This document shows, piece by piece, positions 43,421 through 56,468 of a stretch of 64,000 bases of DNA; the first letter of the stretch is position 1, and each line of letters starts with the position of its first letter. Made by a program: the position numbers and the translations under genes. The notes beneath the pieces were generated by a model. That model had not been told where the DNA came from. It worked only from the letters and a program-made list of their open reading frames with translations, and did no database searches. Source of the DNA: an uncultured Chroococcidiopsis sp. (lineage in GTDB: Bacteria; Cyanobacteriota; Cyanobacteriia; Cyanobacteriales; Chroococcidiopsidaceae); assembly GCA_964248365.1 (NCBI GenBank), contig CAXTYC010000026.1:1-64000 (forward strand), in the 5' to 3' direction.

Positions 43421-43494
43421 CGGGATGTAGCGCAGCTTGGTAGCGCACTTCGTTCGGGACGAAGGGGCCGCTGGTTCGAATCCAGTCATCCCGA
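43421..43494 (+). tRNA. trnP: tRNA-Pro (anticodon CGG)
   Basis: CGGGATG acceptor stem pairs with CATCCCG; anticodon arm CTTCG-TTCGGGA-CGAAG; T-loop GGTTCGAATCC. Confidence 0.97.
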
Positions 43495-43505
43495 TTGGTC
43501 TAAAA

Positions 43506-43575
43506 TGTCGATTATCAAATTATTTGTCTGCGATGACATATTGTTGTCCACAATTCAATTGTCAATTATCAGCGT
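43506..43575 (+). repeat. Transposon left end with three TnsB-site-like repeats
   Basis: TGTCGAT-TATCAAATTATTTGTC, TGACATATTGTTGTC and CCACAATTCAATTGTC, spaced ~16-21 bp apart. Confidence 0.72.
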
Positions 43576-43664
43576 TTATTGTTCATTGATAATTGATAAT
43601 TGTTCATTGATCGTTGATATGATAACTCCACCTTATTTATTTTGTAATTACTAAATCGGGGCAA

Positions 43665-43695
43665 TCCCGAAACATTGTGCGCCTTTCAACCCACC
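43665..43695 (-). CRISPR. Isolated truncated type V-K repeat plus degenerate tRNA-targeting (homing) spacer
   Basis: Minus strand GGTGGGTTGAAAG (43695-43683) is followed by GCGCACAATGTTTCGGGA. The tRNA at 43443-43459 reads GCGCACTTCGTTCGGGA, preceded by GTA. Confidence 0.75.
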
Positions 43696-44361
43696 TTTTT
43701 CTTCAAAAGCTTTTGCTTTTGGGGGCGGAGTGTTTATTACTCTCGATCTGGAAGGGTTGAGGAGCGCAGTGATAGAATATTACCTTGGGGTAGAGTTGAG
43801 CGACGAGGAGCAGCGCTTGCTGTAAAGCAGCTTCATGCGAAGGAATCACAGGCGTGCACTTCTTCGTGCGGTATCCCGACGCTTTATGTTGCAGTGGAAT
43901 GGAGGATCGCTTTCGCTTGAACTTGTAGAGTTTGATCTGGACAGGGCGATCGCATCTCTAGAACAAGGTCAGCCTGTGATTCTGTGTATGGCTAGATCGG
44001 ATTCATCAACGGATAGCAAGCAGATTTGTTGGGGTAGAGCGATCGCGCCACTACATTACGTTTCCCGCCTTGCTAAGACAAAATCCTTCTTTCTTTGCAT
44101 CTTTAAATCTAGGAGCAGATGAGTGATTTGTATTTCTAATACTGCGGTAGCAGTTTCTCTAGCTTACCGACAGGAGAGCTATAACACAATCACGAGTTTT
44201 TTTGGAGATAAGGAATATGTTCAAGCGCAAGTTGAAGCATAAAAACGCACAACAGGGAATAAAACCTTTAATGTCTTCATTAGACCTACAATTGCATTGA
44301 TTGAAAAGCCTGGTTGTTTTTTATAGTACAAATATACTAATTAGCTGTTAACTTAATTAGT

Positions 44362-45750
44362 GTGATTGCAGTGATTGACCTAAAGTATCATCCCTATGTT
44401 TATCTTTTTCCTTGCTTAAACAAACAGGAGTTTGAAGACCTCAAAAAAGACATAGTAGCTAATGGACAGGGAATCCCTATAACAGTCCTGGCAAGGACAA
44501 ACCTTATTCTAGATGGCAGGCACAGATACGAGATTTGCCGCGAGTTAGGTATCCAACCAAGAATTGAATATATTGCGCTAACCGCGTCGCAGATATTGTG
44601 GAAGGTGATTTCCCTCAATGTTAGAAGGCGACATTTAAGTGAGAGTCAAAGAGCAGCAATTGCAGCAAAAATCGCAAATATGCAACAAAGCGGAGACGGT
44701 AGCAATCAATATGCTGTTAAAAAATGTAAAGCAATGCAAATCTACACTTTTGCTAATTCAAAGGAAGTGCCTTTAAAAGAAGCCGCTGAAGCACTCAATG
44801 TAAGTAGGCGGACGGTAGCAAGTACGAGAACGACAATAAACTGTTTTCCTGAAGTTATAGAATATGTTATCAATGGCGATATTACTATTTTTGATGCCTA
44901 TAAGGTAAAAGACGAGTCACCTGAAATCAAACAGGAAGTTATCGCTCGGTTTTGCCGAGACAAAGGGGCAGGGCGCAGAACAAAAAGATTAGCTCAGTAT
45001 CGCAAAGAAATTAAACAGGAAATTGCCAAAAAATCCTTAGAGAAAGTGGTGAACAGCGTTTTAGGGATTGAGGTTGATGAAACCCCTCGTGTATCTTTTG
45101 GTGATGTTTGGCAATTAGGGCAGCACACGCTCACTTGCTGTGACTCCTCAAATTGGAATGCACCGCAAGCTAAGCTAGCTTTCGCAGACCCACCATACAA
45201 CGCAGGTATAGCTGATTGGGACACAGGGTTTGAGTGGAATCATGATTGGCTGATTGATAAAGCCGATACAGTGGTCGTTACACCAGGAGATGAATCTTTT
45301 GCTCATTTCTTGAGAAAAACCTCGATGCCCTACAAGTGCATGATTGCCCACTGGATTAAAAATGGTATGAGCAAAAGCCCAATGGGTTATGGCAATCACA
45401 TCATTGCTGCTGTATTTTGTAAAGAATCTACTCCTTATAAAGTAACAGGGAAGCGCAATCAAAACTACTCTGAAAGTATTATCAAAGCGATAGAAGCTGA
45501 TGACACCGACCATGCAGGTAGAAAACCACTGGATTTTATTGTGACCTGGATTGACAGATTAACCAATCCAGGGGAAGTGGTAATAAATCCATTTTTGGGG
45601 AGTGGAACCACTTTAATAGCTGCTGAACAGATTGGCAGGATTTGTCATGGTGCTGAAATCAATCCTGAATACTGTGGTTTTATTTTAGCGAGATGGATTA
45701 GTTTAGGAAAAGAAAATCCCAAAAAAATTAGAAGCCTAGTTGACGCTTAA
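44362..45750 (+). CDS. ParB-N/HTH domain fused to an N4/N6 DNA methyltransferase (beta-type motif order)
   Basis: ParB motifs ILDGRHRY and NVRRRHLSESQRA; HTH EAAEALNVSRRTV; MTase motifs ADPPY, HAGRKP, NPFLGSGTTL and GAEINPEYC. Confidence 0.9.
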   Translation: MIAVIDLKYHPYVYLFPCLNKQEFEDLKKDIVANGQGIPITVLARTNLILDGRHRYEICRELGIQPRIEYIALTASQILWKVISLNVRRRHLSESQRAAIAAKIANMQQSGDGSNQYAVKKCKAMQIYTFANSKEVPLKEAAEALNVSRRTVASTRTTINCFPEVIEYVINGDITIFDAYKVKDESPEIKQEVIARFCRDKGAGRRTKRLAQYRKEIKQEIAKKSLEKVVNSVLGIEVDETPRVSFGDVWQLGQHTLTCCDSSNWNAPQAKLAFADPPYNAGIADWDTGFEWNHDWLIDKADTVVVTPGDESFAHFLRKTSMPYKCMIAHWIKNGMSKSPMGYGNHIIAAVFCKESTPYKVTGKRNQNYSESIIKAIEADDTDHAGRKPLDFIVTWIDRLTNPGEVVINPFLGSGTTLIAAEQIGRICHGAEINPEYCGFILARWISLGKENPKKIRSLVDA

Positions 45751-45829
45751 AAAATTACGGTGCATCCTGGCATAAAACTATTATAAATCTGCGGCTCAAC
45801 TAATAGTTCTCAGCCTATCGCAGGAATGA

Positions 45830-46645
45830 GACTTAAAAGTTGAGAGCAAATCCTTTTGTCTACTTGAGGTTGAAATTCATGAAACAGTAAGATATGCTTG
45901 TGATTCAAATCATTGGGTCATGTATGATGGCAGCTTTACTTCACTAAATTGGGATTTATGTAAGTTTGCTGCATCTATGCCTGATGATTTGGATGGTTCA
46001 CTAGATGACCCAGATTTTTTAGAATGGGAATTAGTAAAAGATTGTTATCGCCGCTGTTTACTAAGTGTTGACTCTGATTGGTTCACAATTTTCGGTCAGC
46101 CTGATGTCAAAGGTGTTAATCGTCTAATTTCACTAAGTAAAAAGGGTAACAGCAAATACTATTCTCGAAAGCTGAAAGCACTAAGCGGTATTACAGACAA
46201 TGCTTTCCGTCCATCTGACAAGCTTATCTTGGGCTTGATTTTGCAGCCTGATGAATATACATCTCCTGTTTCTTACGAGCAACTTTTTGAAGACTCTCAT
46301 GGTTCAAAGGTTCCTGGCTATGGTAAGCCACACACAGGCAAGAATCACAACTTAGAAAAGCAGCACGATTCGGTAGAAGTAACTTTCAAGAATATGCGAA
46401 TCGTCAACTTTCGCCCTTGGGCTTGGTCGCCTGTAATGACGATTCATTATAACAAAACTGCTTGCAAGCTAGAAGAGGTTTTTGGAGTTGTCAAAGCTCA
46501 GACAAAAACCAGAAGTGTGATGAGCCAATGCCCTTATATCTTGCAGATTTGCTATCAAAACAAGCTTCAGCCGTTATTAAACTCTACGGCGAAATTAATG
46601 TTGGGCGTTATCCCAAACTCTTTAGAGCATTTCGTACTTCTGTAA
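45830..46645 (+). CDS. NurA-like nuclease, probably N-terminally truncated (first ATG at 45920; frame open from 45830)
   Basis: Motifs in NurA order: LLE...WVMYDGS, ISLSKK, SDKLILGLILQPDEYTSP and CPYIL. Lies 10 nt upstream of a HerA gene. Confidence 0.6.
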   Translation, partial: DLKVESKSFCLLEVEIHETVRYACDSNHWVMYDGSFTSLNWDLCKFAASMPDDLDGSLDDPDFLEWELVKDCYRRCLLSVDSDWFTIFGQPDVKGVNRLISLSKKGNSKYYSRKLKALSGITDNAFRPSDKLILGLILQPDEYTSPVSYEQLFEDSHGSKVPGYGKPHTGKNHNLEKQHDSVEVTFKNMRIVNFRPWAWSPVMTIHYNKTACKLEEVFGVVKAQTKTRSVMSQCPYILQICYQNKLQPLLNSTAKLMLGVIPNSLEHFVLL

Positions 46646-46655
46646 GGAAATAATC

Positions 46656-48287
46656 ATGATAACCGACCTAAAACAAGATTTTGTTGCCACAGTCAATTCT
46701 TATAAAAAGGGTAAGTTACACGTTACCATCCTTAACCGTGCTAAAAACCGCAGCATATCTGGCAAACTCTGCGAACTACTGATTAACTCCGACATAGGAA
46801 AACAGCGGGTTCTCTGCCGTATTAATCGTGTGGATATGACAAACGTTATCCACGAAAGTCTAGAGTTTCAGCAATTGCTTGCCGAGGATGGACATCTACC
46901 GTATTATTCGGGCGACTGCGATATTCTTAGTGCTGAAGTTGAGACAATAGCTTGCATAAGAGCTTCTGACTTAGTTTTTTCCGCAATAGCTTGTCCTCCC
47001 AAATCTGGTACACAGTTACGAGTTTTACATGATTGTGAAGTAGCTGATTACCAAGTCGAAAAAACTCATCAAGCAGTGATTGGACACTTACCTGATGAGT
47101 CAGCAATGCCAATGTCAGTAATTAACCGCCACTTTAGCGAATGGGATAATGGTGGTTACGGTGAGGCAAAACACACTTGTATTTTTGGTCAAAATGGTTC
47201 AGGAAAAACTGTTTTAGCCCTAGCGTTAATTGCTACTCAGCTTGCAGCTAATCCACAAAAAGGGTGCTTGATTCCAGATACTGCTGGAGATATTGCCAAA
47301 GGTGGCTCACATTCTAAGGGCGATTTTAAGTTCAACTTTATTGAGTTACTGGAAAGTGCAGGACGACATCCTGAATATATCGGTATTCAGGAAATCAGGT
47401 TAACTAGCAAAACCTCATTCAAGCAGCTACTTAACCCTGTCCTTAGAAAGGCTTTAAATATGCATGGGGAAAAGTCAGAGCAGCTTGCTGACAGGGTAAC
47501 AGAAGAGTTATTTGACCGACAAGTAGACCTGGCAGTTGCACAACCTAACCACATTCTTAACGCCGTCATTGACCGTATTGCCTCAATTTATACTGGTGCC
47601 AAGCGCAGGGAAAAAGAAACTGAGGCTGAAGAAATCAGGGATAATGCAGCTCAGAATCGCTCATTTGTCCGAGCTTACACTAGTGGTGTGATGAAGTACT
47701 TTGAGGGAAAATACAGCATTGACGAGATTGTTCAAGGCTTCCTAGATAACGGGCGCATAATCCTGCTTAATATGGCAACCATGTCTGAGTCAGAACAGCG
47801 ATATGTAATGTACGAAGTCTTTAGTAAAGTCAAACGTAAGGCAGAAGAAGATTTCAAACGTTATGGAACCACGCGCAATGGTTTAGTCGTCTTGGATGAG
47901 GGTCCACGATGGGCACCTCAAAGTGGTGATGATGAAGTTACCCAAGTAATTCGTGACGCTTTTAACACCACTCGTAAGCTTGGCGTGGGTTGGATGATAA
48001 TCTCCCAACGTATCACCGCGATTAGTAAGGATATTATTGCCCAGTGCCATACAAAATTTGTCGGTCGCGGTATGGGTATCGGTGCAGACCGCGATTACAT
48101 GAAAGAATTTTTCCGTGAGGATGGACTAGTCATGTACGACCAGTTAAGCCTAAGAGGCGGCTTCTACTGGCTTGTAACTGGGCATCAAGTCAACTACGGA
48201 CAGGGTTCTCAATATGTCGCATTTGAAACCTTTAGTGGTGATTCGACGCAAGCGATTAAAAACGCTAATCCCCATATTTGGGAATAG
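46656..48287 (+). CDS. HerA/FtsK-superfamily ATPase (DUF87-type)
   Basis: Walker A HTCIFGQNGSGKT, Walker B VVLDEG, and RKLGVGWMIISQR (Arg finger and Gln sensor); N-terminal beta-rich domain. Confidence 0.88.
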   Translation: MITDLKQDFVATVNSYKKGKLHVTILNRAKNRSISGKLCELLINSDIGKQRVLCRINRVDMTNVIHESLEFQQLLAEDGHLPYYSGDCDILSAEVETIACIRASDLVFSAIACPPKSGTQLRVLHDCEVADYQVEKTHQAVIGHLPDESAMPMSVINRHFSEWDNGGYGEAKHTCIFGQNGSGKTVLALALIATQLAANPQKGCLIPDTAGDIAKGGSHSKGDFKFNFIELLESAGRHPEYIGIQEIRLTSKTSFKQLLNPVLRKALNMHGEKSEQLADRVTEELFDRQVDLAVAQPNHILNAVIDRIASIYTGAKRREKETEAEEIRDNAAQNRSFVRAYTSGVMKYFEGKYSIDEIVQGFLDNGRIILLNMATMSESEQRYVMYEVFSKVKRKAEEDFKRYGTTRNGLVVLDEGPRWAPQSGDDEVTQVIRDAFNTTRKLGVGWMIISQRITAISKDIIAQCHTKFVGRGMGIGADRDYMKEFFREDGLVMYDQLSLRGGFYWLVTGHQVNYGQGSQYVAFETFSGDSTQAIKNANPHIWE

Positions 48288-48304
48288 ATGATTTCTAACC
48301 CAAC

Positions 48305-48340
48305 ACAAGCCCTTAAAACTTGTAAGGGCTTGTTTTTCTT
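48305..48340 (+). terminator. Intrinsic terminator after the HerA gene
   Basis: ACAAGCCCTTA / TAAGGGCTTGT stem followed by a T-rich run. Confidence 0.8.
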
Positions 48341-49208
48341 CTTCTAGTACTTGTAGCGCTTAAACCACTTTCTGCCACTTTATCATGTCCGCGAAGGGCA
48401 TAAAGCAACGCTAACATATTCCATCTACCCCTAAAGCTGGGATTTTAAACCTTGCTCCGCAGTTTAGGCATTTTGACAGCAGGCTTAACTGGTGGCGATC
48501 TTGCTACCATTACCTTAAACTACCACGATGCTCCGGTGATAAGATGCTTGGGCAAAACACAAGCTTCACACAAGCCAATAGGCTCTAGCTTTATGCCCAT
48601 ACCATCCGGCGGTAACATCTGGGCTAACCTATCTGCCCCTACTCCAACCACAACCGCTTTGCCCTAACTGCTGCCGAATAGGAGGACTAGCAGACGTTCT
48701 ACACTTGCTCAAAGTTAAAACTTGCCTCTTTTTCAGCACAAGGGGTTACGAAAAAGTTACGAAAAAGAGTCAGCCGTACCAAAGATCTATCGTTCCAACC
48801 CAAATACCTTGTGCATTTTGGTGCGCGACGTTTCGGGTAAGAGTACTCTTACAGATGCGCTCGCTTGGCTTTTTTGAGAATATTTGCAATAAGCCAGTAT
48901 CCCAAGCCAAGCGGGTTCGGCGGCAAGAGTATTCTTCCCGCCGACACCGCGCACCAAAATGCCTAGTCTGACCAATTTTGAGCAGGTTTCATGCAGGGGC
49001 GCGATCGCGTACGTTTGACTGGATGTGTATCCAGGCAAAGTATCGAGTGTCAAATTATTTGACCACTTGACATCTAAAACCTTGATCGAAAAGCTTGTCT
49101 CTTGATGAGGGCAAGGAATCCGATGTACCGACGGAAAACCCTGGAAATAAGCGATCGCACATCTTGAAAACTCAATTTTGTGCTAGTGTAGTAGAGATGA
49201 GAATAAAA

Positions 49209-49317
49209 TTCGGTTGCAGCTTTTGTTTTTAGAATTGATAGGTTTTCCCCTTTTGGTCTTGACAGGCTTCTCTCCGAAATCTCAATCTCTACAACCCTCT
49301 GATTTTGGAGAAAATCT
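49209..49317 (+). promoter_or_regulatory. Structured 5' leader of a cyanobacterial rbp gene
   Basis: Boxes TTCGG, TTTGTTTTTAG and TCTCCGAA. TCTCCGAAATC (49271-49281) can pair with GATTTTGGAGA (49301-49311), which covers the RBS. Confidence 0.6.
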
Positions 49318-49617
49318 ATGTCAATTTATGTAGGTAATCTATCCTACGAGGTCACACAAGAAGACCTCAACGCTGTTTTTGCAGAATATGGTTCTGTAAA
49401 AAGAGTTCAACTACCCACTGACCGCGAAACAGGTCGGATGCGTGGTTTTGGTTTTGTCGAAATGGGTACAGATGCTGAAGAAGAGGCTGCCATTGAAGCC
49501 CTTGATGGTGCTGAATGGATGGGTCGTAGTCTGAAAGTTAATAAGGCGAAGCCTCGTGAAGACAGGGGTTCGTCATATGGTGGTAATCGAAGAAACAACT
49601 TCTCTAGCCGCTACTAA
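49318..49617 (+). CDS. rbp: RRM RNA-binding protein
   Basis: RNP2 IYVGNL and RNP1 RGFGFVEM. Confidence 0.95.
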   Translation: MSIYVGNLSYEVTQEDLNAVFAEYGSVKRVQLPTDRETGRMRGFGFVEMGTDAEEEAAIEALDGAEWMGRSLKVNKAKPREDRGSSYGGNRRNNFSSRY

Positions 49618-49654
49618 GCTTTAAGGCTAAACGCTTTTAGCTTGTATATACAAA

Positions 49655-49757
49655 ACTGACACTTGAGGGTTTGCGATCGATGCCTTGCTCTCAAGTGTCA
49701 GTAACCAAATCTAATCTAATCTAAAGAGGCTTAGGCAGCAATGCTGGAGCCTTTTTG
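49655..49757 (+). terminator. Two hairpins downstream of rbp
   Basis: 13-bp stem ACTGACACTTGAG / CTCAAGTGTCAGT, then AGGCT...AGCCT followed by TTTT. Confidence 0.65.
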
Positions 49758-49804
49758 TATTGGAGCGTCGCTCCTTGACTGGGACAATAATGAGAACGAG
49801 TCGC

Positions 49805-49996
49805 CTAGTGGTGGTACGCGCCAAACATGAGGGCAACAATTATCGGGATAATGATAGGGAGAGCAACTACAAGCCCCCATTTGCTAAACCGAATTTCTTC
49901 ACCCTCAGATTTTAGAAATGCAATCCAGCCAACAGCTCCCATCAATATCCAGATACACCCGAAGGCAATAAAAATAACAAATATTGAATTATCCAT
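49805..49996 (-). CDS. Small two-TM hypothetical protein
   Basis: 63 aa with two hydrophobic segments. Confidence 0.6.
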   Translation of the reverse strand: MDNSIFVIFIAFGCIWILMGAVGWIAFLKSEGEEIRFSKWGLVVALPIIIPIIVALMFGAYHH

Positions 49997-50292
49997 TTTC
50001 TTTCTTAATCTATACTCATTTTCAAAGCCAGCACTAGGTTAGCGCAAAAATTTCAGCGCAATAAACTCCTTGGATTAGTCAAGCTGTCGTGCATTTAATT
50101 TTCACACTTAGTTCCTGCTGGAGGCAAACCCCACAAGAAATTGATTATTTTAGAGGATGCTTATCTGGATAGCCTTTTAGCTTAATAACCAACCCTAGGG
50201 TTAAGTCAGGATTTCTAGAACACCAAAGTAGCAGGTAAACTCAGATGTTGCAGCTTTAAAAATTTTTCCCCTAAGATACGGAGATTTAAGCC

Positions 50293-50934
50293 TTGGGTAT
50301 AGAATTGCGTAGTTATGTATTTCTAGACAGCTTGCAGCCGCAACACGCGGCTTACATGGGAACGGTGGCGCTAGGGTTTTTGCCATTGCCTGGTGATGCT
50401 TCCTTGTGGATTGAAATCTCGCCTGGTATCGAAATTAACCGGATTATGGATATCGCCCTGAAAGCTACCTCTGTACGTCCTGGGGTGCAAGTTGTCGAAC
50501 GACTTTATGGGCTTCTAGAAGTTCATTCTAGCAAACAGGGCGAGACGCGGACAGCGGGGAAGGCGATTCTGGAGGCATTGGGAGTCCGTGAAAGGGAGTG
50601 TCTCAAACCGCACGTCATTTCTAGCCAAATTATTCGCAACATCGATCCCCACCAAACACAATTAATCAATCGCACCCGCAAAGGACAGATGATTTTAGCA
50701 GGGCAAACACTATATGTGTTAGAAGTTCAGCCAGCCGCCTACGCTGCTTTAGCAGCGAACCAGGCAGAGAAAGCCGCCTTGATTAACATTCTAGAGATTC
50801 AGGCTGTAGGCAGTTTCGGACGACTCTACCTGGGCGGACAAGAACAGGATATTCTGGCGGGTTCTAGTGCAGCGTTGGCGGCGATTGAAAATGTGGTTGG
50901 GCGTGAAAATCCTGCTAGTGGGCGCAAGGAGTAG
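50293..50934 (+). CDS. ccmP: Carboxysome shell protein CcmP (tandem BMC domains)
   Basis: Motifs [30 protein letters not shown] and [10 protein letters not shown]. Confidence 0.9.
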
Positions 50935-51077
50935 CCAATGTATGTTCGTTAGAAAGCGCAATAGCCCTATTCATATCTTGCACCAGTATCTAATAGAGGC
51001 TGAGCCTCTATACAACGCCGTACCCAGTCTCAGACTGGGTACAAGGGTAGGGGAGGATTAACTAAAGGAGATGTTGG

Positions 51078-51854
51078 ATGGCAAATATGGAGCATCTTGC
51101 GCTACTTGATCTGGGTGCAGTAAAATGGCTTGAGTGGAGAAACAAAAATATACAGATAAAACCAGACTTTAGCGAAGCTAACCTAAAAGGAGCTAACCTA
51201 AAAGGAGCTAACCTCAGTGGGGCTAATCTCTACAAAGCCAGTCTGATCGATGCTAATCTCCAACAAGTCGAACTGATCGATGCTAATCTGATTGAAACTC
51301 AACTGATTGGGGCAGACCTAAGTAATGCTAACCTGATTGGGGCAAACCTTAGAGGATCTGACCTGAGACGAGCCGATCTTAGTAATGCTAACTTGATTGC
51401 AACTGAATTTATCGGGGCTAATCTTAGCGAGTGCGATCTGAGTGGAGCAAACCTTAGAAGGAGTAGCCTAGGTTATGCTAACTTGATGGCAGCTAACCTG
51501 AGCAATGCTAATCTGAGCAATGCTAACCTCTACGAAGCTGAACTGATCGGAGCTTACCTTTACAGGGCTGATCTCCACAATGCCAATCTTAGCTCGTCTC
51601 ACCTCGGTGGAGCTTATGTTTTCGGGGCTAACCTGAGTGAGGCTAATCTTTACCAAGCTGACTTTAGGTGGGCTAATCTGAGCAAAGCTAACTTCACAGG
51701 CGCTATTCTGAGCAAAGTTAACTTTAGAGGCGCTAATTTGAGCAAAGCTAACTTTGCAGGCGCTAATTTGAGCAAAGCTAACCTCGACGGGGCTAATCTG
51801 GGCAAAGCTGACTTCCAAGGGGCAATTATGCCTGATGGCACAATCCACGATTAG
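51078..51854 (+). CDS. Pentapeptide repeat protein
   Basis: Many A(N/D)Lxx repeats; ends GAIMPDG. Confidence 0.95.
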   Translation: MANMEHLALLDLGAVKWLEWRNKNIQIKPDFSEANLKGANLKGANLSGANLYKASLIDANLQQVELIDANLIETQLIGADLSNANLIGANLRGSDLRRADLSNANLIATEFIGANLSECDLSGANLRRSSLGYANLMAANLSNANLSNANLYEAELIGAYLYRADLHNANLSSSHLGGAYVFGANLSEANLYQADFRWANLSKANFTGAILSKVNFRGANLSKANFAGANLSKANLDGANLGKADFQGAIMPDGTIHD

Positions 51855-52072
51855 GAATTCGTAATTCCTAATTCGTAATTCGTAATTATCTTGATCTCCC
51901 CCTGCTCCTTTGCAGGCAAGATGCCTGCGCTACCCACAGCGAACCCTGCGGTCTCAACGGGTAAAATTAAAAGCATAGCAGCTTACTCCTGTGCTTTGAT
52001 GTTTAGAGACTTCGCTCTTCAAAACCCAGCACAAGAGTAATTTGCAAATTCCTCAAGAGGAAATTGAAGCTA

Positions 52073-52342
52073 TTAATTACCAGCAGGCTGCTGATCCATC
52101 ATTTCAGCCCTCGCTTGATCTGCCGTTTTATTAAGATACACTGCTCGTTCATCTACTGTCCTAATCCATTCGACCGGAAACCAGTGGTGTTGCCCATCAT
52201 CAGCGCTATGCTTGGTCAACTTGATGTACTTACCGCCTTCCACCTTGTCCACATTGCCAATATGCTCTTCTGATCCACCTGCCAAACCGCCAGGTCCGTC
52301 TGCGTAGACGGGCATATGTTCTTTAATGTTTGATATATCCAT
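52073..52342 (-). CDS. DUF2171 family protein
   Basis: Motifs IKEHMPV, HIGNVDKVEG, IKLTK and DGQHHWFP. Confidence 0.85.
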   Translation of the reverse strand: MDISNIKEHMPVYADGPGGLAGGSEEHIGNVDKVEGGKYIKLTKHSADDGQHHWFPVEWIRTVDERAVYLNKTADQARAEMMDQQPAGN

Positions 52343-52500
52343 CTTCAGCCTCTTCTTAATATATCTGGACTAACACGCAAGTCATACCCTGGAACTGGGT
52401 GACTTATGCTTTAGTGAAATAGATCCAGAGTATACTGCTTACAGGTGCAACTCCTCGTTCTACAGACAGATTAATAGAACTGAAATTTTGTCTGGTAATG

Positions 52501-52583
52501 GGTAACTGGTAGTTGGTAACTGGTAGTTGGTAGTTGGTAACTGATAACTGATAACTGATAACTGATAACTGGTAACTGGTAAC
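52501..52583. repeat. STRR-type heptamer tract (CTGGTAA/TTGGTAG/CTGATAA)n
   Basis: About 11 degenerate tandem copies; similar tracts near 23298 and 56912. Confidence 0.9.
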
Positions 52584-52741
52584 TTCAGGTTGCAGTTGCT
52601 GCCGTTGTGCCAGTTGAAAGACCGGAATTTGAGTTTATCTATTTGTATAAATTATTAGGCACACTAAAGCAGGATAAATTAACTGTCTCTAGTTTTAGTG
52701 ATGTTAAGTAGGTGTGTGGTGAGAGTGAGGAGAAAAAAGCG

Positions 52742-52888
52742 ATGTTTCAGAAACTATTACTAGCAGCGACGATAACTTTGAGTGTCTATCTATTTTCGGG
52801 AGTCCGTTTAAGTGCAAATAACCAAAGTGCAACTAAAGCTTATCTGACAGAAATCCCAACTTTTTCTTATCCAAAGCGTGGAGTGTGA
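52742..52888 (+). CDS. Small 48-aa signal-peptide-like protein (absent from ORF track)
   Basis: GAGGAG RBS, then MFQKLLLAATITLSVYLFSGVRLSANNQSATKAYLTEIPTFSYPKRGV*. Confidence 0.55.
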   Translation: MFQKLLLAATITLSVYLFSGVRLSANNQSATKAYLTEIPTFSYPKRGV

Positions 52889-53226
52889 GGGTCAAATGCG
52901 GTTGGCGAGGATTTCGCCACTGTACATATTAAACCACATAGGGTAACAATGCTAGATCCTGCAATTGTTAGCCATCTGGGGGTTACATTCCTCCATAACC
53001 TTTGATTTATCATGATTTCTTGACAAATTGAAGTAAGCAGCTATCTCTGGGTAGCTCTGGAAACTTAGTATTTTACTATGTAAATATAGCTCTATCTATT
53101 ATCACAAGCAATTTTTTCCCTCAGTCTCCTTTGCTCAGAGGAACAGAGGGCATTTTGTCATATCCTAAATAGAAAGACAATATAAAATTTAAAGTATTTT
53201 TATTTACATATACTCAATTCGACTAG

Positions 53227-53427
53227 CGTAGTATTATCTTACTTGTAAGCAGTTACACACTGCTAATTTTTGGCTGGTGGATTCTTGTAGCACCAGCTTT
53301 ATTAGTTTTGCTGGTAAATGGTGTTGGACTGACTGCATTCTATCAATACGATCAATCTTTGAGAAATCGAATTGCTGAACGTCAATTGATCAAGGTTTAC
53401 AAGGATGGCGATCGCAGTTTGCTCTAA
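53227..53427 (+). pseudogene. Fragment resembling the TM/linker region of a CHASE2 sensor kinase
   Basis: SYTLLIFGWWILVAPALLVLLVNGVGLTAFYQYDQSLRNRIAERQLI, with no start codon and no kinase domain. Confidence 0.55.
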
Positions 53428-53624: not shown

Positions 53625-56468
53625 CTAGTCGATATTTTGTGTCGCCCCGCTAATCGCATCCAACAAGAACAAACCCATATCTTTATGCAGTGCTTCATTA
53701 TGCTGCGGACACCTGGTTGAATGTAGACACCTTGGACAACCCGCTTCACAATCACATTCGGCTGCTAGGGCAATTGATGCCGCCGCAAATTTAGGTAAGT
53801 CATAGAAAATAGCTTCTGCTGCTCCATTACCACCTTCACAAGTGTCAAAAAAGTAGCCAATTGTTTTAGTCTGTTTTTGCGTTGTAACTATTGCGTCCAC
53901 ATCCAAACTAGAGGATAAAACTACCAAAGGTACAGCTTTTACTATCTGGTGCTGAATGCTGTGCAGTGCTATAAAATCAGCGCTGCTAGTCCACAATGAA
54001 AGATGAAGTTCTGGAATTTCACCACTTGTTGAGTTTATAAGTTCTTTCTTGTATTGGTTAGCTTGTACTTGCAGGGCTTTTTGTAGGGGTTCATTTATTT
54101 CCACTAGGAGGCAGGGTGCTTGGTATTTTGTCACGTAAGGCGGATCAAAAGCCACTTCTGACTGAAGCAAAGTCACTTCAGCGGTGGACAGAGGATGCTT
54201 GCACTTTTGACAAGTTTTTCCTTCAAGCGGTTTTTTATAGTTAGCGCAACGCTGGCTTTTACAAGTCATTCCATAGGCGCGTTTCATCAAACGATAACCT
54301 GTAACTGAATTAGTAATTTCTCCCCAAACCAGAGTTAATCTAACCCGTGCATCTTTGATGTTGGTAGGGACAATCTTGGATTGTGCCAATGTAGAAAGTG
54401 GTTGAATATCTAGTTCCGATTCGGCAGAGGTAAATAAATCTATATCTTTACCTAAAAACGTTAGTATTGCTTCTTGTTTCTCTTCGTTTAGGCTCTCGCT
54501 GCGGTAGGCGATTAACTCTCCGTTTTCATCTTGCACTGTATATATTGCCCCAGGAAATACCTCCCGATGGGCAAGCATAAGAGACATAGTTTCTAAGATT
54601 TCGCCCGTATGCTTGTCAATTAAGGAAATTGAAGTTTGAGTGCTGCTTCTAATATTAATCTCTCTGTGAGGATAACCCCTGCTCCAAAGTTTTCCGTTGC
54701 TCGTTATAAAAATTTTGTTTTGTTGTAAAAGAGAATCTGCAATTGCTAGGGCTGCTTTTCCAAAACGGGTATTGAGTTGATTTAAAGGCAGGCTACTTTC
54801 AACGCAACCGCATTCTAAATGTTTGCCTAGAATTGTTGGATAGTCAGGGTTAAAAGCAGCACGTTCAACTTCGCCGGACAGTAACTGTTCGGGATGCCGA
54901 GCGTAGAATACATCAATCGGGTTTTGTGCCAAGGGTAGATAAATCACAAGTCCGTGCTGTTTGCGTCCAGCTCTTCCCACTCGTTGCCAAAATGACATTA
55001 AGCTACCTGGAAATCCACGAAGCAAACAGCACTCTAGAGCAGGTAAATCAATTCCAGCTTCCAACGAAGAAGTAGAAATAATTACCTTGATTTGTCCGTC
55101 TAGCAGTTTTTGAATAATCTCGCGGCGGCGATCGCTCCTCAAGGAACTGTAAAACACCGCCACCTTGCTTGTTAAATAACCATTTCCTTGGCGTTGTGCT
55201 TCCCTTTGAATTAACCCCAGTAAACCTTTGACAGCAGCACGGGAATTACAAAAGACAATACCACTAAGGTTATGCTGCAACCAGGCTCCTACAATCTTAG
55301 CAGCTTCGACATTAGCTGCATTATTTGGAGCAAGGCATAATAAGGTACGCCCTGAACTAGGAGCGCCACTGCGCTCAATTAGGTGTAGTTTTTCAGGTTC
55401 GTTAGTTCTGCCACTAAACCTAAGCGCCATTTCTTGGGGATTGCCAATTGTGGCACTAGAGCAGATAAATTGCAGAGCGAGGGAATTACCGCCAACAGTA
55501 TCAACAGCTAGGCGCAGCCTCCGCATCAAATTAGCCACATGAGCGCCAAAAGCGCCAACATAAGTGTGTGATTCATCAATTACTACCCAGCGCAACTGTT
55601 TTAAAAACTGTCTCATTCCTTCTTGTGATTCTCGCTGCCGCACATTGTAAAGATAGTAATGCAACAAGTCGGGACTGACTGCTAATATGTTTGGAGGATT
55701 GGGAATAAACAAGCGTATTCGTTCTTCTTTGGGTGTATCACCCGTCATTAATGCGATTTTGAGGCAGTTGTTTGGCATCGCCTCCTTCAGCGATTGCAAC
55801 TTTCCCATTTGATCGAGGGCTAATGCTTTAAGTGGGAAAATATATAATGCCGTTGTTTGCGGTTGCTCGATACACGATTCTAGAATAGCGAGGTTGTAGC
55901 ACAGCGTCTTTCCACTTGCTGTCGGCGTGGTAATACTCAAGTCAAAACCAGCACGTAACTTTGTCAGTGCTTCTAGTTGGTGAGAAAAAATGCTGACGAT
56001 CCCGTTATTGTGCAACCCCAAACGCAAAGCCGGTGGTAAATCGTTGGGTATGGGGTAAACCATTCCTTGATTAGCATCTTTAATATCCACCGTCGTGATG
56101 GTTGCTATTAGTTCTTGAACTACAGACTGAAACGCCAAATGCGGGATTTGCCCAATGCGTTCGGAAATTGTTGCGGTTGCTGCACCCGTTTCTTCGAGCA
56201 ACGGTGTTGTGGAAGAAATTCTGTTGGCATTACTCGGTTTAATCGATCCACGCGCGATCGCTCTTTCCCAATCTCCAAATTGAGTTGGGTTGACTTCTTC
56301 AACAAACTTAGCAATTAACCGTCTGCCCAATATCCCCATTACTTCACCAACTCCATACTCTGGCGAGTAAATATGCTTACCCACACTCAACCATTCGGGA
56401 GGAGGGGGAACAGTAGAGTTGGCGGCACGGATAATTGCGGCGTAATCAGTTGGTTTGTTGTCAGTCAC
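53625..56468 (-). CDS. DEAD/DEAH-box SF2 helicase with C-terminal DUF1998 (Hrq1/MrfA-like)
   Basis: Motifs TPTASGKT, PLKALA, DESH, SAT, LEAGID and QRVGRAGR; C-terminal GGNG...CDCEAGCPRC. Confidence 0.92.
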   Translation of the reverse strand: MTDNKPTDYAAIIRAANSTVPPPPEWLSVGKHIYSPEYGVGEVMGILGRRLIAKFVEEVNPTQFGDWERAIARGSIKPSNANRISSTTPLLEETGAATATISERIGQIPHLAFQSVVQELIATITTVDIKDANQGMVYPIPNDLPPALRLGLHNNGIVSIFSHQLEALTKLRAGFDLSITTPTASGKTLCYNLAILESCIEQPQTTALYIFPLKALALDQMGKLQSLKEAMPNNCLKIALMTGDTPKEERIRLFIPNPPNILAVSPDLLHYYLYNVRQRESQEGMRQFLKQLRWVVIDESHTYVGAFGAHVANLMRRLRLAVDTVGGNSLALQFICSSATIGNPQEMALRFSGRTNEPEKLHLIERSGAPSSGRTLLCLAPNNAANVEAAKIVGAWLQHNLSGIVFCNSRAAVKGLLGLIQREAQRQGNGYLTSKVAVFYSSLRSDRRREIIQKLLDGQIKVIISTSSLEAGIDLPALECCLLRGFPGSLMSFWQRVGRAGRKQHGLVIYLPLAQNPIDVFYARHPEQLLSGEVERAAFNPDYPTILGKHLECGCVESSLPLNQLNTRFGKAALAIADSLLQQNKIFITSNGKLWSRGYPHREINIRSSTQTSISLIDKHTGEILETMSLMLAHREVFPGAIYTVQDENGELIAYRSESLNEEKQEAILTFLGKDIDLFTSAESELDIQPLSTLAQSKIVPTNIKDARVRLTLVWGEITNSVTGYRLMKRAYGMTCKSQRCANYKKPLEGKTCQKCKHPLSTAEVTLLQSEVAFDPPYVTKYQAPCLLVEINEPLQKALQVQANQYKKELINSTSGEIPELHLSLWTSSADFIALHSIQHQIVKAVPLVVLSSSLDVDAIVTTQKQTKTIGYFFDTCEGGNGAAEAIFYDLPKFAAASIALAAECDCEAGCPRCLHSTRCPQHNEALHKDMGLFLLDAISGATQNID

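Follow-up and report, generated by a model that had tools for sequence, protein, structure and literature searches.

The closest known system to the element described here is the type V-K CAST, a transposon associated with CRISPR, in its CvkR-regulated branch; type V-K CASTs include ShCAST (Tn7747), AcCAST (Tn7746) and AnCAST of Anabaena PCC 7120. In the layout published for V-K CASTs the tRNA gene is followed by the left end, a truncated CRISPR repeat with a 17-nt anchor spacer, cvkR, the cargo, tniQ and the right end, and the reported distance from the protospacer adjacent motif (PAM) to the end is 46-82 bp (PMC9938897). The canonical target duplication is given as 5 bp (PMC11406308), and a TnsB tetramer was described to occupy two sites per end (PMC9371665, PMC9876797). 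Hsieh and Peters reported that 152 of 282 cas12k genes have a proximal tnsBCQ and that 130 do not. The latter mostly keep an end, an array and the tRNA site, which was read as inactivation followed by degradation, and loss of tnsBCQ by degradation was described as common (10.1101/2021.02.06.429022). The window analyzed here is a stretch of 64,000 nucleotides from an uncultured Chroococcidiopsis sp. (contig CAXTYC010000026.1, positions 1 to 64,000). Its segment 43506-49072 is very probably a decayed type V-K CAST that homed to a tRNA-Pro gene and was degraded in situ. It is one more decayed V-K CAST, and such elements have already been described as common. Unlike an intact V-K CAST, it has lost cas12k, the tracrRNA, the array, tnsB and tnsC by deletion, its cvkR and tniQ are pseudogenes, its right end consists of one flipped site, and its flanking duplication is 7 instead of 5 bp. 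Unlike the degraded Tn7-CRISPR-Cas12K elements of Hsieh and Peters, this element has also lost cas12k, and cas12k-anchored surveys would therefore not count it; surveys anchored on cas12k or tnsB overlook remnants of this kind. Of possible specialist interest are the non-canonical duplications, the flipped end and a NurA-HerA cargo with swappable partners.

A preliminary description of this DNA had proposed a V-K CAST derivative without machinery behind tRNA-Pro, starting at a TGT 11 bp after the tRNA. This has been borne out, and the TGT is indeed found at 43506. V-K descent of the element follows from its homing unit, its PAM distance, the remnants of cvkR and tniQ, its 90 % identity to an intact sister element in the related genome G024, and empty-site alleles. 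The features of the target and the left side are:

43421..43494, forward strand: tRNA-Pro(CGG), the attachment site, a host gene outside the element (ARAGORN, Rfam)
43440..43459, forward strand: GTA PAM (43440-43442) and 17-nt homing protospacer (43443-43459); the intact G024 element has a perfect homing spacer of the same sequence
43506..43563, forward strand: left end with TGT terminus, one clean TnsB site and two degenerate ones, up to 29/32 identical to other left ends
43555..43620, no strand assigned: dispersed short-repeat element of the host genome, present at ~79 genomic places, overlapping the third TnsB site
43665..43695, reverse strand: truncated CRISPR repeat at 43695-43683, then the decayed homing spacer at 43682-43665, by homology to G024

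Three TnsB sites had been proposed for the left end. The first, at 43513-43528, is clean; the second, at 43534-43548, lacks one base; the third (43548-43563) has 4 mismatches and merges into the dispersed repeat. The left end lies 63 bp from the PAM, and six other ends at the same tRNA lie at 59-65 bp. The decayed homing spacer shows 14 matches to the 17-nt protospacer with one inserted base, and the repeat part is intact. Positions 43618-43721 are 90 % identical at the nucleotide level to the homing unit of the intact V-K CAST in G024, of which the homing spacer matches tRNA-Pro perfectly. Rfam found no RNA families beyond tRNA. The end motif is rare: a search for it (TGT, 4 nt and a 16-nt site, with at most one mismatch in the site) gave 5 matches in the 5.58-Mb genome, 43506 being one of them, and the other four (contigs C11, C19, C22 and C51) likewise show end anatomy. 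Of 401 genomes of the order, 153 contain a similar end pattern; the reversed control gave 1 match.

tRNA-Pro(CGG) is a busy landing site. Many left ends (loci L077-L127 and L166-L203) are preceded by a TGT or a truncated end, which suggests that new insertions repeatedly landed a few bases inside the end left by the preceding one.

Remnants of the machinery were found on both sides of the cargo:

43721..43722, no strand assigned: deletion junction, ~2.8 kb missing relative to G024 (alignment to locus L080)
43722..44046, forward strand: pseudogene of cvkR, the MerR-type CAST repressor, 5' part lost, with frameshifts and stops (nucleotide alignment, tblastn)
48366..48633, reverse strand: tniQ pseudogene, codons ~76-164 of 169, directed away from the right end, an orientation shared with V-K CASTs (tblastn E 1e-18)
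48742..49000, no strand assigned: 259-bp hairpin-rich repeated element, sitting where tnsC and tnsB were

Compared to G024, the ~2.8-kb deletion covers the array, the tracrRNA, cas12k and the 5' part of cvkR. Positions 43618-43721 map to L080 19452-19350 and positions 43723-43800 to L080 16557-16481, and the homing unit is joined straight to the middle of cvkR. The cvkR remnant is 77 % identical at the nucleotide level to the cvkR region of G010 (tblastn E 7e-15). Of the tnsB-tnsC-tniQ operon only a broken half of tniQ remains, the C-terminal one, with stops and a frameshift; the stretch 48378-48686 is 68 % identical at the nucleotide level to G024. A second deletion of ~3 kb took tnsC, tnsB, half of tniQ and most of the right end. 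The statement that tnsB, tnsC, cas12k and an array are missing between the ends thus holds, and the statement that tniQ is missing as well was wrong. No cas12k and no full CRISPR repeat were found in the element; no dedicated tracrRNA model was run. Both pseudogenes occupy the canonical V-K position and orientation, and the complete order of parts (tRNA, left end, truncated repeat and spacer, cvkR, cargo, tniQ, right end) is the published one.

These remnants also bear on the suggestion that the island is another tRNA-targeting Tn7-like element, TnsD-directed and I-B2/I-D-like, or an integrase island with end-like motifs by chance. Cyanobacterial tRNA genes are reported to be targeted by several element types (PMC11406308), and the same cargo adjoins tyrosine recombinases in a Nostoc locus (L061). 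However, cvkR, the truncated repeat-spacer unit and the short V-K-type tniQ are marks of a V-K CAST, and neither an integrase nor a duplicated tRNA 3' end was found inside. The suggestion is thereby largely refuted and has hardly any probability left.

The 259-bp repeat has a 95 % copy at C7:116888-117147 and diverged relatives on C52, C17 and C28 and in G011; an autonomous partner was not found, with 3 of 61 genomes showing any match. The preliminary description had seen no HIP1 site by eye from ~44050 to ~49000, and the element is in fact free of HIP1 from 44039 to 49001; gaps this long make up 26 of the 5455 inter-HIP1 gaps of the genome. A HIP1-mediated swap of the cargo, bracketed by the HIP1 sites at 44039 and 49001, was considered and not adopted because tniQ lies between the two sites.

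The outer boundaries had been placed correctly at 43506 and 49072, and ACA terminates at 49072. The right end and the flanking duplication are arranged as follows:

43499..43505, forward strand: left copy of the 7-bp duplication TCTAAAA, abutting the left end
49041..49072, forward strand: right-end stub, consisting of the last 32 bp of a V-K right end in inverted orientation, with one TnsB site at 49048-49063 (end alignments)
49073..49079, forward strand: right copy of the 7-bp duplication, abutting the right end; target DNA resumes here (loose end of metagenome run X3)

The element has TGT/ACA termini with TnsB sites, the right end being only an inverted one-site stub. It had been read on the reverse strand as a right end with a single site. 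The single site stands, but on this strand it starts one base late and is out of register. The ends were compared with those of intact elements of related genomes (51 ends), not with the sequences of ShCAST and AcCAST. On the reverse strand the 32 bp match intact right ends in register at 19/32 or less, compared to 26-28/32 on the forward strand to the right ends of G290, G043, G010 and others, a match that extends over the 4-nt spacer into the beginning of site 2. Because the forward strand matches better (28/32 versus 19/32), the terminal 32 bp are inverted. A micro-inversion would be the simplest reading, since the stub is nearly palindromic and has a short inverted repeat at its borders. 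In three right ends of full length, TnsB sites lie near positions 8, 28, 124, 154 and 201-211; the element keeps one site. Deletion of the terminal site with the second site left was rejected as a candidate (21-23/32 at offset 19 versus 26-28/32 inverted).

The stub could also be the collapsed scar of a separate, opposite insertion at the same site, in which case the element carrying the cargo would have lost its own right end entirely. Collapsed end scars of 31-52 bp do exist at CAST sites in G026, G248 and G290, and tandem and nested ends are frequent. However, the stub itself has no flanking duplication, V-K insertion was described as unidirectional (10.1101/2022.01.07.475005), and more events are required than for inversion of 32 bp, making a separate scar unlikely. 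The scars in these genomes are palindromic and run end to end, with lengths of 31 bp and 52 bp (L077:11515-11545 in G026, L152:12069-12099 in G248 and L119:782-833 in G290). Right ends broken near position 32 recur in G194 and on C4 of the own genome.

An empty site had been named as a check on the insertion, and metagenome contigs give part of it. Among the 4 of 17 listed runs that were compared, run X3 has two contigs that agree with the DNA as far as 43505 and then pass into sequence resembling 49080-49098, which represents an empty-site allele; no assembled relative shows a full one. Pieces from run X1, ~96-99 % alike, show the tRNA-left end-cvkR junction at an identical position. They cover the tRNA end with the left end and the cvkR remnant, the methyltransferase of the cargo, and the region from HerA to tniQ. 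Since X1 has the same deleted junction, the loss of cas12k predates the split from the X1 strain. Among 14 relatives listed, the flank of tRNA-Pro carries another CAST end in 4 and TCTAAAAC without an end in 2; in the latter, G010 and G021, TCTAAAAC follows the tRNA directly, and just the first 8-11 target bases are in common.

Several points weigh against a V-K CAST that homed to this tRNA and decayed in place. The decayed spacer alone needs 4 edits to match the tRNA-Pro site, and 14 genomic places, the spacer itself included, match it within 3 edits; its identity as a homing spacer rests on the homology to G024 because by itself the match is weak. The duplication has 7 bp instead of the canonical 5. 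The X3 evidence for the empty site is a 30-letter loose-end consensus from metagenome contigs, and DNA searches with both flanks found no assembled genome in which tRNA-Pro is joined to the rbp gene as a clean empty allele. The same-genus genomes that were searched differ in their synteny on the right side of the tRNA. Finally, the assembly consists of 102 contigs, so that intact machinery is "not found" rather than "absent" and may lie in a gap or on an unassembled plasmid.

No second copy of the element was found in its own genome. The preliminary description had also proposed looking elsewhere in the genome for tnsB, tnsC, tniQ and cas12k. Only broken copies were found in the assembly, on C19 and C22; no intact gene was detected with the profiles PF06527, PF09299, NF038191 and PF05621 or by tblastn with the intact G005 proteins. 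Four further PF05621 matches sit in frames of 828-907 aa. The broken copies belong to a second CAST (C22:3396-4975 and C19:1-3201) at tRNA-Arg(CCG), its two contigs joining via a split hsdM. This CAST has normal ends; it comprises a left end 63 bp from a GTG PAM, two repeats, a homing spacer with 1 mismatch and a type I restriction-modification cargo. Its tnsB lies in three frames, tnsC has an internal deletion, tniQ contains stops, and just the last ~155 residues of cas12k remain. Orphan CAST ends without machinery were observed at C11:75040, C51:2253 and C4:250792 and 251611. The end on C51 follows a partial tRNA-Val copy, and the C4 stubs stop near position 31.

Both CASTs of this genome have 7-bp flanking duplications. 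The length is not due to the flipped end, because the second CAST has normal ends and 7 bp as well. Among the end pairs listed from elsewhere, defined as ends in facing orientation on one contig and not all confirmed as a single element, 6 of 22 have an abutting repeat of at least 4 (5, 5, 5, 4, 6 and 8), and 16 of 22 have 0-3. A scan of metagenomes for ends gave 38 loci and no usable end pair. A 7-bp duplication and a 5-bp core with matching outer bases are indistinguishable by sequence; the register of the terminal TGT fits other ends. Cyanobacteria are polyploid. The 7 bp would most likely stem from recombination of two insertions that lay 2 bp from each other on separate chromosome copies, or from a variable TnsB stagger. 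Recombination of insertions offset by a few bases on separate copies would produce such a spread of duplication lengths. The literature searched, to which subscription papers did not belong and to which bioRxiv supplements may add such elements, held no report of natural V-K duplications other than 5 bp, nor of trans-mobilized V-K remnants. Duplications other than 5 bp bear on automated end-calling and on the resolution of insertions in polyploid hosts.

The element had been regarded as a cryptic non-autonomous transposon that might be mobilized in trans, which would require TnsB to use the palindromic first right-end site in flipped orientation. The flipped stub still shows TGT...ACA flush with the duplication, the TnsB site is near-palindromic, right ends broken at ~position 32 recur (G194, own C4), and intact sister machinery is present in the genus and family (G005, G024). 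However, the right end has one site instead of five or more, with a one-base register shift, so that two complete ends are not available. The homing spacer is decayed, and the helper genes in the assembly, a draft of 102 contigs, are all broken. The element is present as a single copy at its own homing site, its cargo nuclease is broken, and the duplication of the second CAST, which has normal ends, makes a flipped end unneeded as an explanation of the 7 bp. Mobilization in trans is therefore highly improbable, and the end anatomy points to a stranded island rather than a donor. A broader form of this idea is that V-K TnsB is laxer in cyanobacteria than in E. coli assays, using the near-palindromic first right-end site backwards, cutting at position 32 and joining with a stagger of 4-8 bp; stripped CASTs with a flipped one-site end would then be real transposition products by which defence cargo of the NurA-HerA kind is ferried in trans from one tRNA site to another. 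This is considered very unlikely.

For the stranded V-K CAST the following history is proposed. An autonomous element close to the intact one of G024 would have homed to tRNA-Pro(CGG) via its truncated repeat-spacer guide and inserted left end first, 63 bp from the GTA PAM; anatomy, distance and orientation are as observed, the event itself is deduced. One deletion removed cas12k together with the array, the tracrRNA and the beginning of cvkR. A second took tnsB, tnsC, half of tniQ and the right end except for its last 32 bp, now inverted. The cargo has outlasted the machinery, its nuclease being lost later in this genome.

The cargo consists of three genes:

44362..45750, forward strand: ParB-like, helix-turn-helix and N6/N4 DNA methyltransferase protein, 462 aa, open frame (PF01555 E 9e-15)
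45884..46650, forward strand: NurA-fold nuclease pseudogene (fold of an intact Nostoc homologue)
46656..48287, forward strand: HerA-type ATPase, 543 aa, open frame, Walker A and B intact (domain searches, alignment)

In the methyltransferase the ParB_N match is weak and is found in the G261 homologue only; motif I has Asn in place of the Asp that is kept in 3/3 homologues. The nuclease has lost its first ~127 codons and with them a nearly invariant Asp; a frameshift lies near the C-terminus. It has 23 homologues besides itself, most of ~380 aa. The family gave no meaningful Pfam, PADLOC or PDB sequence match, and only the fold search named it. For the intact Nostoc homologue, a model with a pLDDT of 82.8 matches NurA with a Foldseek E of 3e-10 and a Z of 21.4 (root-mean-square deviation 4.3, 297 residues aligned), and it also matches TdpB of TdpABC (8wet_G, Z 12.6). 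The nuclease adjoins the HerA ATPase, forming a HerA-NurA module in which the fold is that of the Nostoc homologue, the copy here being a pseudogene. Contigs of runs X1, X2 and X3 match from 45888 on and carry 163-446 other letters upstream; the 5' deletion of the nuclease therefore looks private to this genome. On the cargo PADLOC returned domain matches to MTase_II, HerA and mad8 only, with no match for the nuclease.

Of 400 further genomes of the phylum, 5 matched the nuclease profile, with six loci in total. Two of these loci belong to V-K remnants, one to a TnsD-type Tn7, and one lies behind a tRNA; the other two show no marks. Five loci found with HerA showed neither CAST genes nor a tRNA. 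More distant NurA-HerA pairs occur as cargo at L151 (G167), L152 (G248), L128 (G194), L150 (G229) and L148 (G038). DruA accompanies two pairs located in V-K remnants and one pair that lies behind a tRNA-Val and has no CAST marks; a further pair belongs to a third V-K remnant, and a methyltransferase is the partner in a TnsD-type Tn7. The methyltransferase-NurA-HerA set is a mobile cassette that occurs outside CASTs too, and NurA-HerA cassettes with a swappable partner, methyltransferase or DruA, recur on stripped CASTs and a Tn7. In the Nostoc metagenome-assembled genome (L061:3727-7115) two tyrosine recombinases and a DUF6262 gene precede the same cassette, which apparently interrupts a RecQ-like gene.

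It may well be that the cassette worked like a restriction-modification system, the alternative being a role in DNA transfer. The latter is suggested by the tdtA operon of ICEth1 in Thermus thermophilus HB27, in which a NurA-like nuclease, a HerA-type ATPase and a PF01555 methylase are reported to be co-transcribed (PMC5365140). As there, a nuclease, HerA and methylase set is carried on a mobile element. Unlike the tdtA operon, which was described as serving DNA donation and including a type IIG restriction enzyme (PMC5365140), the methylase here is fused to ParB and comes first in the order, and the set is known from sequence alone. The archaeal and Deinococcus HerA-NurA systems share the NurA-type fold; unlike in those systems, no Mre11/Rad50 was found nearby. 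The modification partner in TdpABC is reportedly a phosphorothioation enzyme, unlike the methyltransferase found here.

Outside the element, 53625-56468 on the reverse strand encodes a 947-aa helicase-like open reading frame in a HIP1-poor stretch of lower GC content (no HIP1 from 49151 to 53408), possibly another acquired segment. Elsewhere in the genome ARAGORN predicted tRNAs with unusual anticodons, namely adjacent tRNA-Leu(CAA) and tRNA-Ile(TAT) at C19:83933-84083 and a 92-nt tRNA-Asp(ATC) at C49:2985-3076.

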